A stretch of DNA of 59,856 nucleotides, filler included, from Catajapyx aquilonaris (taxonomy: Eukaryota), in the NCBI GenBank assembly GCA_000934665.2. It is 2 parts of 2 records of this genome, joined end to end, with 100 filler letters (N's around TTAATTAATTAA, not from the genome) between each part and the next. Parts side by side here need not be neighbours in the genome. Positions count along the whole stretch, not along the records: positions 1 to 30,138 come from KZ539214.1; 1 more part is not named here. The stretch is one strand, 5' to 3'. This document shows, one piece after another, positions 18,363 to 29,188 of the stretch. The notes under the pieces were generated by a model. The model ran no database searches, was not told the DNA's origin, and saw nothing but the letters and a program-made list of their open reading frames with translations. The position numbers were made by a program, and so were the translations under genes. Positions within the stretch are counted from its first letter, which is position 1; each line of letters opens with the position of its first letter.

Positions 18363-18721
18363 TCAGCGGTCTCCCGCACTCTTCTCGGTGCTGGCTTCAG
18401 CGCTGTCGCTGCTCTTGGACATGGCCCCTGCTATCCATGCAGTCTTGGGCGATGCAGTGGTGGTCTCTTTAGCTTCCGCAGCTTCCTCACCCATCATCAT
18501 TGTTGTGGTCTCACCTTCTGCCATCATGGTGGTACTACCGCTTTCAGTGGTGTTTCCAGATTCGGTTGTGGTCGAACCGGCTTCGGTTGTCGTCGTCTCT
18601 TGTCCAGCAATCTTAAATTGGAAATCAACAATGCACTCGCGAATTTCCAGGTACAGAGGACACTGTAACTTACCTGCTGGAAGACGACGAATGCAAGGAG
18701 GACAATCAGAAGAGACTTCAT
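18363..18721 (-). CDS. Secreted cluster gene A: 98-aa acidic Thr/Ser/Glu-rich peptide
   Basis: Exon 1 18721-18674 MKSLLIVLLAFVVFQQ; exon 2 18611-18363 IAGQETTTTEAGSTTTESGNTTESGSTTMMAEGETTTMMMGEE...SAGDR*; TATAAAG ~18790; AATAAA 18260-18265. Confidence 0.8.
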
Positions 18722-20276
18722 TGTTACGGTGTTCAACACACTGGTACTATCAGACAAATGGTGCTCTACAGATAGGCTGGCTGTCCCTTTATAGAAACGG
18801 AGCAGTTGACGTCTCGATTGTTCGATGTCGCGAGGTACGATGTCTCTTGACATGCTCCAGACGGATGGTACAATGATTTCAGGTCGGATGATTGATGCCT
18901 CTCTATTGTCCCGAGGTGCATGTCCTAACGCCATGACCTTGATTGCAGCGTGTCATCTTCTGTATGAATATGCAGTCCTTCCTGCACCTGTTGGCTGTTT
19001 CTCAGTATTCGGAGAACAACAGTAGGATGGAAATCATTTCGACACTCTGAATCATCCTCACATTACCACAATATTGCTCATCCCCCATTTTGATTAAACA
19101 TACTGAAACATTGTTTTAATAATTGCATTGTTGCAGAATTTCCAATTGACCTCGATTGTGGACAGTCATATGTAGGGTAATAGCTCATCATAATAGCCTT
19201 CTAACAGTATTAGCACATGTATCGGCATCCAATGTGCGAATTACGTGCCCATACGTACTGAATTGATTGCGTCCAGCCATGGTGTCGGTATGGAGGTCAC
19301 CCGGGTTACAATTTGGAGAAAGCAGAGGGCGATGGCATGTTCGTCCTTACTACTAACAAATGAATATGTATCAGCATTGGCGTCTTTGCAGGGGNGGGGG
19401 CTGACACACTATTGTTTCGTAACGATAATATTGTGGAAACGCCTTCCGGTATGTAATTACCGTGGGCGGTGTCTACTGAATTGTCATATAAAAGTTGGTA
19501 ATGTACAGAGAGTACGGTACTCATATGACTCACATGTCACGCGTTATTGTTGATTCGCCTCATTACTCATAATATCAATGTCTATTTACTTCCATCAATA
19601 ATAACAGTGCTGAATCATCATATTAGTCATCCGTACTGTACATCCTGGTAGTCAACATCCGACGTATTTTTTCCCCGTTCTCGTTTTCTTCCTGAATAGA
19701 ACTGGAAACTTGTTAGACAACTTTCTTCTTCATGCACTTGGTCATTGCACCTCTCTTTCAGTACCGGTACCTTTTTTTTGTTTTTTGTTTACCTCTTTCG
19801 ATTGAGACGAACGATCAATTCTGTCACTCTTTTTGTTTATTTTCACTTTTTTTTTTTGTACTCGTTCTTCCTGTCATGAATTGACCTACAAACCTATATA
19901 AATCGGTGACTAAGTAGGACACAATTTTCTCGAAAATTAGTATCCAAATATGTACATTCTCTTCCTTGTCACGAAAGTCCATCAGCAAGAATTATAAGCC
20001 AATTTTACATCACATTTCCTAGTGTCACCCAAAATGTGGGTTAACACTTTCGTTGGAGTTAGACAAACGTGGTTAAATATTAATGATCATATGTTTATTG
20101 TGGGGCAACCTGAGACTCTCACTCAATTTAAGAAGCTGGCCGTACTATAACTGACATACTGGTCATGTGTGTCGGAGAGCTCCAGTAGCTACTTAGTAGA
20201 AAGTGTTCAAGTGGAAAGGGCCAGCAGCCAGTTTCACCTTCAGTCTTCGGATGCTGACTGATAGTGCAAGGCGGAA

Positions 20277-21263
20277 ATGGGACCAGTCTTAGTACTGATA
20301 CTGATCGTGGCACAGGTATGGTTCTTTATTAATTAAGAAACACATGTGTTTACATATCATTTTCCGGAAGACCTGGTCTGCACCGTATGATGTTACGACC
20401 ATCGCACCGGAAGACACGACAATATTGCTGGACGACACGACCACCATCAGTAACGAAGACTTGTCATTAGATGAGTCCAGAGTAGGACTCTTCACCAATC
20501 TGATTGCGACGACTCCCAGGACAGTGGACGTCAAGGCAAAGTTGCAAATAAGGTTGGCCTCTTATCTGAAGAGTCTACTGCAGGCTCATCATGAACTGCC
20601 TGTCATTATGCTGAACGCAACTTTGGTGGTAGCTGAAGGACTTCAGGTATGTCGGAACATTATTGAAAAATTCACCGTTACTGCACTTTCTCTGTGTGCT
20701 CAACCGTAATATATGGGTTACACAACCGTGATGTAAACTTTCCCAATGTTCGGTAATTTAATTTCGCTTTATTGTTACAGCATGGTTTACTAGACAAGGC
20801 TTTGGATAATGTTGTGACGGATTTGCAGAAGAGTATCCAAAAGGCGGATAGGGACACAGCTACCTTGTTTGAGATGCTACTGCAGGTGTTGATTCGAGGG
20901 GTCAAAGTTGAACTGGAGAACTTGGGACAACCGAAGATACATCCTCTGAGGGACGTGAAGGACGGTCTTGAGATTATTTATCTGTACGTGATCGGAAACA
21001 GGTACAGGGTCACGCAGCTACTGAGGTCATCGGCTTCTGCTGACAGGAGTCGGACTGTAGAGACAGGGGTCAGCAACACTGTGGTTGCCCCTACTGTCTC
21101 TGTCACCGCGGCATCTGCCCCTGTGTTGCAGTCCAGTGGGGACGTGCTGGGGGCATTCATCAACACCGCGGCCAATGTTATGGGAAGGGTGTTTAACACC
21201 ATGATGGGTGTTGTTGGTGGGATTTTCAACCTGTTTGGACGTGGAAATAATGTGGTCACTTAG
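20277..21263 (+). CDS. Secreted cluster gene B: 265-aa protein, Thr/Asp-rich N-terminus, helical core, amphipathic C-terminus
   Basis: Exons 20277-20315 (MGPVLVLILIVAQ), 20371-20646, 20781-21263; canonical GT-AG phase-0 introns in one frame. Confidence 0.78.
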
Positions 21264-22156
21264 TGCGTGTCTGTGTCATTCCAGAAGGTGACAATTTCGG
21301 ACCCATGAAAGCAGTGTGTTCCTATTGAACTGTCCAGTGGTTAGCGATTTTTCCTTGGATTTTTCCGTGCTAATAAGCTGCCTATATTTTTCAAGGCGTA
21401 CAAAAATATGGCCATATGTTTTCCACCCAACCTATATTTCTAGCAGCTTTTTATTTGGAAAAGTATTCTAGAAGTAACTGCGAAAGTAGCTGCGGATTTA
21501 ATTGCTAATTATTACGAACATTTCAGTTGGACCACAATTAAGTTTTTTGGCAACTTATTTATGTGATGGAACATTAGGTACAGGTATATCGTGAACCAAA
21601 CTACTGCCATCCCCATAATAATTATGTAATTGTTTCTATGCCTTTCTTCATCAGAGGTGATGGATGACCATTTGTAATTATTTTATATGTCCGATTGAGT
21701 TTACGAAAGTGTGCCAGGTTGTAATAGCAGCTGTAAATAAATAAAATCAGTGTTTCTCAATCGTGAAATTTCTCCCATCATTACTGCTAGCAGGTGAAAG
21801 GAATTTTTAGACGTGTCTAAGCATACACACGTTGCCGTTACGTCATCTCAACTGTTATGCACTGAAGAAGCTGTAATAATAATCGCACGAGTTAAGTAGC
21901 TTAGCTATAAAATGATTCTAAGAACTGCCAAACTCAACAATGAAGAACAAGCTGTACAATGCCTAAATTCTTGAAATTTCATCTACATTCTGTAAGTGGT
22001 CTGTGCTGCGAATCCAGGGTTAAATTTGGCGTCACAATCGGGTGCTTACTAGATTACTCCAAGGTAGACACACCGCTCTGAATTAATCAAGAGGGCAAAA
22101 GGTGAAATAAAAGCTTCCGAAGGTGACCATTGGGCAGTTGTGTTAGTTTGAGCACG

Positions 22157-27375: not shown

Positions 27376-27861
27376 TTATTTTGTGATAGGTGCGGCTGTA
27401 GGTGCCAGACCCGAATTTGGCGCCTGCTGATTAGGCTGTTGGTTCAGGACTCCTCTGAAGAATGGTAGGTCAATCACCGACAACTGCCGAAGAGAATTTA
27501 CCATTTGGGCTCCCATCTGAGCAGCATCGCTTGCGAATTTGGTCGCTCCGCTCAGCTGAGATATGAAGTTTGACCCTTGCTGGGTCAGCTGACCCATCTG
27601 ACTCGCCAAATTTGTGGCCAAATTGGTAAACTGACCCACAGTGTCAGTCAACACGTTCAGAGGGTTGACCAACTGACGCTTCTGTCGCAGTTGGGTGACA
27701 TCTTCAGGTGATGTCAAGCACAGGCTCTGAAACAATCAATTATTAATTAGTGGAAATTATTAATTAGTGGAAATTATTAATTGCGTTCAATATTTTTTGA
27801 TAATTGTATGACGTACCTGATGCAGGCAGAGCAAGAGGATAACCAGAGCTGTGAGCTTCAT
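27376..27861 (-). CDS. Secreted cluster gene H: 131-aa paralogue (RQKR|QLVNPL)
   Basis: Exon 1 27861-27817 MKLTALVILLLCLHQ|GTACGT; exon 2 27726-27376; TATAAAG ~27909; AATAAA 27352-27357. Confidence 0.85.
27738..27782. repeat. 17-bp tandem repeat in gene H intron
   Basis: AATTATTAATTAGTGGA repeated about 2.6 times. Confidence 0.8.
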
Positions 27862-28454
27862 GTTGCAAATATTGCTGAGTGACCATTCCGTACCTGAGGA
27901 ACTTCCTTTATACGCAGATGCTTCCTGACCTTGGTGTCAGATGAGAAAAACCTTGCCACAGATTTTGCCAATTTTTTTTAGAGGAAGATGTAAAATTGGA
28001 CAAAGTAGCACAAGATCAGTCGAATTTCGAAAGACCTCGACACACGCAAAAATAATTACGTGGATGTGAGAAAATGTAAATGCAACTATGTAGTTCACAT
28101 CTTTTGAGTGGGGCTGTACTGCACAATCAAAAAATTGATGACGTAGGGGATATACCCAGTAACACTTGATGACTTCTTTTTGTGCTGTGTAATTATTGCG
28201 CAATTACTTTTTGGTGCCATGACCGTGTGACGTGGCTACCCAAGGCTTAATCATTGGCTGGTTATATTAGATGAAACTGACCATCGAAGACCTTACGTGC
28301 ATAGGGACGTGAGAATTGCATGATATATTACAGCGCACATAGCTGCTTACACAGTGAAGTAATTCACCTTCGGGGTCAATTAGCTAGTGTTTCCCAACAC
28401 GAAAACCTCTAGGTACATTTTTAAATCAAATTTATTGTCATTGTTTCAGGGACA

Positions 28455-29188
28455 TTAGTAATATGGCGCGTGTCCCCTGTGAGGACCATGAAATGGGAGA
28501 GTCCTAAAGACCTCCATCAGATGGAACCAGTGGTCCAACAAGATATCAAAATTGACCTCAGAGAACAACCTGAAGAATATGAACTGAAACTCCTTGGACA
28601 TCTCCGCAATGTCGAGGAATGTTAGAAACGCTCTGGTGGATATCTCCTCTGCTGCGTTCTTGCCTTTGGCCAGATCAGTCAAATCCAGCGACGTCTGGAA
28701 CACTTTGGTCAAAAGGTCAAGAATCAAGTTGAGGAGATGGCCGATTAGGTCGGTTCCGCCTCCGACTGTGACCGGACCATCGGAAGACTTGGCCAACATG
28801 TAAGAGTAGCTGTCATGATCAGCACTTGAAGCTGGGTTTGCTGGTGGTCCTCCTGATGCTGATGGTGACTGCTGGGGTTGTCTGTCATGGTGAGGGATCT
28901 GCTCTCGTGGTCCTGGCTGCTGTGGAAGGAGGTCAACTTTAGCATATATTATGTGAGACACAATATTTTACGTACAGGGTAGCCCGGTGGTGGTGGTGGT
29001 GGTCCTGTCTTCTGAGGATGCTGTGGTCCATCTGGAGGTGGTCCTTGGTAGGCCCTCTCAGATGGCGCATTGGCAGCCACCTGAAATTTTACGTTTCAAA
29101 TAACTTTGCGGCACGATTTAGCGTAAGAAAAATTTACCTGCAGGAATAAGAGCCAGCAGCAAACAACTAGGACAACGAGTCTAGCCAT
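28455..29188 (-). CDS. Secreted cluster gene I: 206-aa protein, Pro/Gln/Gly-rich N-half and helical C-half
   Basis: Exons 29188-29138 (MARLVVLVVCCWLLFLQ), 29080-28976 (VAANAPSE...GPPPPPPGYP), 28919-28455; TATAAAT ~29245; AATAAA 28431-28436. Confidence 0.8.

Follow-up and report, generated by a model that had tools for sequence, protein, structure and literature searches.

What is encoded in roughly 11 kb of Catajapyx aquilonaris DNA (assembly GCA_000934665.2) whose genes are missed by plain open reading frame (ORF) scans? The window, i.e. the whole stretch that was analysed, is 59,856 nucleotides (59.9 kb) long, filler included, and is joined from two parts, of which positions 1 to 30,138 come from KZ539214.1. 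At 18363-29188, a sequence-only reading had placed nine orphan genes for secreted proteins, designated A to I, and had interpreted them as an old tandem array serving one secretory tissue. The explanation favoured here, tentatively, is a lineage-restricted neighbourhood of nine genes for secreted, essentially Cys-free proteins, centred on genes E, F, G and H (E-H), which would form a new coiled-coil family processed by a convertase. An actual material-forming role is much less likely than this overall picture. The earlier interpretation is supported in part only: the cluster is genuine and hidden from ORF scans, whereas a single family, a single array or a single gland system comprising all nine genes is not supported.

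All nine gene models could be spliced as the sequence-only reading had described them. They are, in order along the window:

Gene A, 18363..18721, minus strand: 98 residues; exons 18674-18721 and 18363-18611; intron of 62 nt, phase 0.
Gene B, 20277..21263, plus strand: 265 residues; exons 20277-20315, 20371-20646 and 20781-21263; introns of 55 and 134 nt, phase 0.
Gene C, 22157..23201, plus strand: 312 residues; exons 22157-22201, 22256-22765 and 22818-23201; introns of 54 and 52 nt, phase 0.
Gene D, 23706..24103, minus strand: 114 residues; exons 24062-24103 and 23706-24008; intron of 53 nt, phase 0.
Gene E, 24546..25061, minus strand: 154 residues; exons 25017-25061 and 24546-24965; intron of 51 nt, phase 0.
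Gene F, 25232..25732, minus strand: 103 residues; exons 25685-25732 and 25232-25495; intron of 189 nt, phase 0.
Gene G, 26182..26963, minus strand: 120 residues; exons 26922-26963 and 26182-26502; intron of 419 nt, phase 0.
Gene H, 27376..27861, minus strand: 131 residues; exons 27817-27861 and 27376-27726; intron of 90 nt, phase 0.
Gene I, 28455..29188, minus strand: 206 residues; exons 29138-29188, 28976-29080 and 28455-28919; introns of 57 and 56 nt, phase 0.

The first exons, which are 48, 39, 45, 42, 45, 48, 42, 45 and 51 nt long from A to I, encode Met followed by a hydrophobic stretch in every gene. All 12 introns are GT..AG introns in phase 0; eight of them fall within 51-62 nt and the remaining four measure 90, 134, 189 and 419 nt. 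At all nine genes the first intron interrupts the reading frame 2-6 codons ahead of the likely signal cut. The first exon is closed by CAG/GT in six genes (A, B, C, E, H and I) and by ATG, AAG or GTG in the rest, the same count as had been read from the sequence. The terminal Gln codon requires no special explanation, since the donor consensus (C/A)AG/GT in phase 0 reads Gln or Lys. Phase 0 accounts for about half of all introns, and with half taken as the expectation, nine independent phase-0 introns (E-H counted once) would arise by chance with a probability of ~0.002. The whole window was scanned for an ATG, a hydrophobic stretch and a phase-0 GT, followed by an AG with at least 60 open codons. 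The scan recovered all nine starts of the cluster; the other 49 kb yielded only about six further candidates, all marginal, whose second ORFs span 61-94 codons. The tiny signal-peptide exons, the phase-0 introns of mostly 51-62 nt and the failure of plain ORF scans to reveal these genes were thus all borne out. The description of the mature chains as Cys-free would hold for all nine if signal peptidase cuts after a single Cys that exon 2 of D, E, F and H encodes within its first residues (1-3); with the cut placed by eye, this Cys lies at or before it. Taken together, the gene models and the secretion of their products are considered very probable.

Transcript evidence was obtained from one public run, X1, which contains about a third of the cluster's sampled words and for which no kind of run is recorded. 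The run was treated as RNA-derived because its contigs skip introns. Seven X1 contigs, all with at least 99% identity, lie on the cluster stretch and cover six of the nine genes. Spliced reads at the predicted junctions had been proposed as a check on the models. Four of the 12 introns are skipped exactly at the predicted bases: both introns of C by a single contig, that of D and that of F; no contig lies over the other eight. On A (18300-18569), G (26150-26371) and I (28636-28876, in exon 3) the contigs fall within exons and leave the junctions uncovered. An alternative intron of 81 nt in gene F was ruled out, as the contig there skips precisely the 189-nt intron. For gene G, the reading frame would be kept just as well by a 39-nt exon and a 422-nt intron, and the 419-nt intron is a prediction.

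To what extent are the nine genes related? Among the predicted proteins, only E, F, G and H are demonstrable paralogues. Five of their six pairs are connected by BLASTP with E-values of 2e-7 to 6e-23, and the E-F pair by phmmer only (1.6e-5 to 4.4e-5). In all six pairs the proportion of nonsynonymous differences (pN, 0.42-0.51) is below that of synonymous differences (pS, 0.72-0.84), which is saturated. E-H are therefore old duplicates under protein-level constraint, and this includes E and H, the two members without transcript contigs. Sequence comparison revealed no kinship of A, B, C, D and I with E-H or with one another, and hhalign of the E-H alignment against B, C, D and I returned probabilities of 0.1-1.0%. 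A weak hint connects C and G (BLASTP E=0.012, signal peptides included). No additional copies were found in the window by tblastn with all nine proteins. The notion of an old tandem array thus stands for E-H, which are paralogous, old and constrained, but not for A, B, C, D and I, which have no detectable kinship. These five are best read, from their sequences, as unrelated orphans sharing only the exon plan common to small secreted-protein genes; the plan found in all nine may be just the usual one for such genes.

The four E-H proteins share a distinct anatomy. Their signal peptide is interrupted by the phase-0 intron three codons ahead of the likely cut, and a propeptide that is acidic or Gln-rich leads from the cut to a basic motif, R-x-K/R-R, 10-17 residues further on. 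The motif is invariant in the four members, reading RPRR in E, RQKR in F, RVKR in G and RQKR in H. It is followed by Gln in E, G and H and by Glu in F, and all four have an invariant Pro four to six residues after it. Together with RFRR of gene C, which is also followed by Gln and is situated at the same relative place, the R-x-K/R-R motif is present in five of the nine genes, at precursor residues 24-36, and matches the substrate motif of furin-type convertases. Past the motif, gene E continues with a heptad helix and a basic tail, and gene F with an Ala-rich helix (Ala at 20 of 73 mature residues). Gene H continues with a 62-residue core of 3.5-residue period and a Pro/Gln-rich tail. A tail rich in Pro, Gln and Thr is found in three of the four members.

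The region behind the propeptide is strictly periodic in its hydrophobicity. In the 62-residue core of H, the hydrophobicity spectrum has a single peak, at 3.50 residues, with a power of 122.6; between periods of 2 and 8 the power at all others is at most 12.7. The power of the periodicity in D, E, F, G and H was reached by none of 200 shuffles. In E-H the repeat extends over ~63 residues or about nine heptads, with the d positions occupied by L/F/L/L/F/A/A/M-V/L and the a positions by L/V/A/M/G/L/A/G/L. The a/d stripe is flanked by Thr, Ser and Ala, and Gln and Asn occupy the outer face. The register is common to E, G and H; the best register of F is one residue off in the N-terminal third, across a one-residue alignment gap. 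A 3.5-residue repeat that stays in phase over several heptads, as seen here, is the property by which the coiled-coil class is recognised, and the ~63-residue stretch suggests a coiled coil in E-H. An AlphaFold2 (AF2) model of H built with the four-sequence alignment consists of one long helix at residues 22-82, with a predicted local distance difference test score (pLDDT) of 49.5. A complex prediction for the four mature chains, in which H served as the partner, scored 0.02 (mark 0.34) in a run without controls, a result that speaks neither for nor against binding.

These features can be arranged into a sequence of events. E-H would be made as prepro-proteins that enter the secretory pathway, where a furin-type convertase would remove their propeptide, and that of C. 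Cleavage would leave an N-terminal Gln in E, G and H, as well as in C, which could cyclise to pyro-Glu. The nearly uncharged helices might then pack through their a/d stripe into coiled-coil bundles, and such bundles would belong to an extracellular material or fluid. More speculatively, the low charge and the surface of Gln, Asn, Ser and Thr would favour packing side by side, and the propeptide could hold the chains back from premature assembly.

Several observations weigh against a neighbourhood built around a coiled-coil family. The helices of E-H are almost without charges at the e and g positions, unlike typical coiled coils, and an amphipathic lipid-binding or membrane-active helix would produce a similar periodic signal. 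The coiled-coil call is founded on periodicity; the AF2 models are poor (pLDDT 49.5 for H and 46.5 for exon 2 of C, the latter also helical). The mature E-H chains carry 4-9 basic and 1-8 acidic residues, with isoelectric points (pI) from 4.7 (F) to 12 (E); their net charge ranges from -2 (F) to +8 (E), a spread that does not suit any one simple role. The -3/-1 rule, applied by eye, served to assign the signal peptides and their cleavage sites. X1 contigs are lacking for B, E and H, which in a single run says nothing either way. The large protein collections were searched with the E-H profile, H, B and I only. No common upstream motif beyond that of control sets was found among the nine promoters, so that co-regulation is unsupported.

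An alternative view of the same helices is that E-H, and perhaps their neighbours too, are haemolymph proteins induced by infection or stress which act on membranes or lipids through an amphipathic helix, in the manner of Turandots or of the attacin/gloverin type. Clustered, TATA-driven genes with minimal introns for small, secreted, Cys-free proteins are in keeping with such effectors, as are the R-x-K/R-R propeptide in five of the nine, the amphipathic helices and the strongly basic nature of E (pI 12); attacin and gloverin are themselves convertase-processed, Cys-free immune proteins of insects. F, G and H, however, are near-neutral or acidic, and the strict 3.5 period, in phase over ~63 residues, is longer and more regular than in typical helical antimicrobial peptides. 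Pfam gave no match to Turandot, attacin, gloverin, cecropin or any other such family at E<=1. In the portion of the text available, the antimicrobial-peptide genes which a homology survey reports for springtails are limited to diapausin, defensin, Alo, cecropin and diptericin (PMC10051947). A humoral effector function is thus considered unlikely.

The coiled-coil family as a core leaves the other five genes to be described. After its signal peptide, the short chain of A is acidic and mucin-like (of 79 residues, 19 are Thr, 12 Glu and 11 Ser) and has no hydrophobic periodicity. In B, an acidic Thr-rich stretch comes after the signal peptide, then an amphipathic helical region and finally a tail rich in Gly, Asn, Met and Val; its hydrophobic period of 3.67 residues was matched by none of 200 shuffles. 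In C, the signal peptide and the RFRR motif lead into a chain rich in Gln, Asn, Gly and Ser. D encodes a signal peptide and a Gln-rich helical chain with the heptad period of 3.5. The product of I begins with a signal peptide; its N-terminal half is Pro-rich and its C-terminal half hydrophobic and helical. The hydrophobic periodicity of C and I is weaker.

Three irregularities lie close to these genes. A run of ten N between poly-C and poly-A tracts (23400-23429) is located just past the 3' end of gene C, whose X1 contig ends at 23400, and a single N occupies position 19396 in the spacer between A and B; both are assembly joins, not biology. At 29974 on the minus strand, ~0.8 kb past gene I, an ATG, a hydrophobic stretch and a phase-0 GT are followed by a second ORF of 61 codons, a marginal candidate for a tenth or decayed gene.

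Do the nine genes share regulatory signals? A TATA-like hexamer 45-72 nt 5' of the ATG is present in seven of them. In five it is the strict TATAAA, for which the chance is ~6e-8 from the window's own TATAAA frequency, and in two more ATAAAA; B and E have none near the ATG. Individual positions are -72 for TATAAA in A, -45 for TATAAAA in D, -51 for TATAAA in H and -60 for TATAAAT in I. On the 3' side, AATAAA lies within 100 nt of the stop in five genes (chance ~4e-4), e.g. at +98 in A and at +19 in both H and I, and ATTAAA is similarly placed in C, so that A, C, F, G, H and I together have a close signal. In D and E the signal is farther off, at +148 and +327 respectively, and none occurs within 400 nt of the stop in B. 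The earlier view that most genes have a TATA box and an AATAAA close to the stop accordingly holds for the majority, but B and E lack the former and B, D and E the latter. CAAGGT(Y), a sequence which we take to resemble a monomeric nuclear-receptor half-site, occurs within 250 nt upstream of the ATG in six of the nine (E, F, H, A, C and I). As a control, nine 250-bp segments at a time were drawn at random from elsewhere in the window; across these sets the best-shared 6-mer reached seven of nine at the 95th percentile, and CAAGGT, at six of nine, was rejected as a shared promoter motif. Alignment of the upstream regions of E-H revealed nothing in common.

These data bear on the proposal that the nine genes descend from one ancestor and are highly co-expressed in one gland as a single secretion, be it adhesive or silk, spermatophore or seminal fluid, egg coat, venom or a defensive fluid. 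The identical exon plan of all nine, with a phase-0 first intron 2-6 codons before the likely signal cut, would be readily accounted for, as would the close packing without repeats between genes, the TATA promoters and the minimal introns. The mixture of compositions (mucin-like, Gln/Asn-rich, Pro-rich, heptad helices) also seems typical of secreted materials. Against this, kinship is detectable in only four of the nine, no upstream motif exceeds the controls, and the genes are divided among three transcription blocks, of which B-C is on the plus strand and the other two, A and D-I, are on the minus strand. A single gland secretion of common origin is hence regarded as rather doubtful, more so than humoral effectors.

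It is improbable that E-H are exchangeable apolipoprotein-like lipid carriers or organisers of surface lipids, with helices binding lipid instead of each other, for although the helices combine length and amphipathic character with few charges and no Cys, and B has the 3.67-residue (11/3) period of the apolipoprotein type, the period of E-H is 3.5 and not 3.6-3.67, their hydrophobic stripe is narrow (a/d only) with Thr, Ser and Ala flanking it, and no ApoLp-III or other apolipoprotein family was matched in Pfam at E<=1.

Relatives of the neighbourhood with its E-H core were sought in several databases. The 11 exon translations gave nothing above the Pfam thresholds (best E-value 0.012), in agreement with the earlier statement that no domain could be recognised. 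A sequence search of the PDB with the E-H profile and the exons of A, B, C, D and I gave nothing below E=0.07. The E-H profile retrieved none of 1.84 billion representatives at E<=0.001, a word search of 5.8 billion clusters with H, exon 3 of B and exon 3 of I found none, and the ESM Atlas gave no usable match for H. A clear hit to a characterised family, which would have spoken against orphan genes, was thus absent from Pfam and the PDB and, for the E-H profile, H, B and I, from the large collections. The literature on springtails (Collembola) and secreted coiled-coil proteins offered no link, the sole match being a cytoplasmic intermediate filament, and that on spermatophore proteomes and lineage-specific secreted clusters nothing relevant. 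Spidroin terminal domains were also considered, given the compositional likeness of C and E-H, and were discarded, as neither Spidroin_N nor Spidroin_MaSp matched at E<=1 in Pfam.

The surroundings of the cluster differ from it in character. The gene upstream (4.5-15.5 kb, plus strand) combines a myotubularin-like phosphatase domain with a FYVE finger and is of the MTMR3/4 type, as the sequence-only reading had named it; its introns are far longer than those of the cluster. Within this gene, 9181-9492 and 9817-10128 form a direct duplication of 312 bp with 99.7% identity. One coding exon is repeated, two ORFs share its translation, and an ambiguous base adjoins one of the copies; either the assembly is at fault here or the exon was duplicated very recently. 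Inside the cluster itself self-BLAST detected no DNA repeats, consistent with the earlier remark that it contains no transposons. Downstream of it, the window holds repeat copies and a DDE_Tnp_4 remnant. A pair of inverted repeats of 1.7 kb (31294-32987 and 40463-42135, 84% identity) is situated in G+C-rich stretches (0.53-0.56). Their ORFs have no Pfam match, and they are probably two copies of one transposable element. An ORF at 45591-45983 on the plus strand matches the DDE_Tnp_4 endonuclease domain (E 5.7e-20) and, judged from this match, represents a remnant or part of a Harbinger/PIF-type transposase.

Gene finders systematically overlook small secreted-protein genes whose first exons are this short; the present cluster adds nine, six of them with transcript support. 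What is new is the design of the E-H family, in which a signal peptide, a convertase site and nine heptads follow one another, and this design is testable. If E-H do not self-assemble, the locus represents one more fast-evolving, lineage-restricted secretory gene cluster.

How does the neighbourhood compare with systems already known? The Turandot family of Drosophila likewise consists of clustered genes for small secreted helical proteins; it differs in that no Pfam match connects it to E-H, and we know of no convertase-type propeptide in Turandots. In the part of the literature available, Turandots are described as secreted humoral proteins. A second likeness is to the signal-peptide-exon genes of animals, which also have a short first exon with most of the signal peptide and an intron near the cleavage site. 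The published excess of introns near signal cleavage sites, according to the accessible portion of that report, is one of phase 1 (PMC1626468), whereas the first introns of all nine genes described here are in phase 0.

The nearest design is that of the silk fibroins of the aculeate Hymenoptera (bees, ants and hornets), AmelF1-4, which are four small, paralogous, secreted, non-repetitive proteins with a central heptad region as the functional unit. E-H are likewise four tandem paralogues built on heptads. The Ala-rich a/d core of F resembles the 'Alacoil' idea proposed for these silks; the other E-H members are not Ala-rich. E-H carry a convertase propeptide, whereas we know of no R-x-K/R-R propeptide in the aculeate fibroins. 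Homology is also lacking, neither the profile search of the 1.84 billion representatives nor the word search with H having connected the two. In the available part of the published account, the four chains of honeybee silk form one antiparallel heterotetramer through Ala-rich coiled-coil regions of ~210 residues (PMC12284834), and the ~63 residues of E-H are a third of that length. On account of these differences in homology, length and propeptide, E-H were not assigned to the silk fibroins. The boldest extension, to which only a small probability is given, would have E-H as the four chains of a convertase-triggered heteromeric coiled-coil block, in which loss of the acidic propeptide permits the nearly uncharged helices, faced with Gln, Asn, Ser and Thr, to assemble into an alpha-helical fibre or cement to which the mucin-like, Gln/Asn-rich and Pro-rich neighbours also contribute. 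This would be an independent 'four-paralogue coiled-coil silk' outside the aculeate Hymenoptera. Should E-H prove to be a true self-assembling coiled coil, they would provide a compact, Cys-free and easily expressed block with an appeal for materials like that of honeybee silk.

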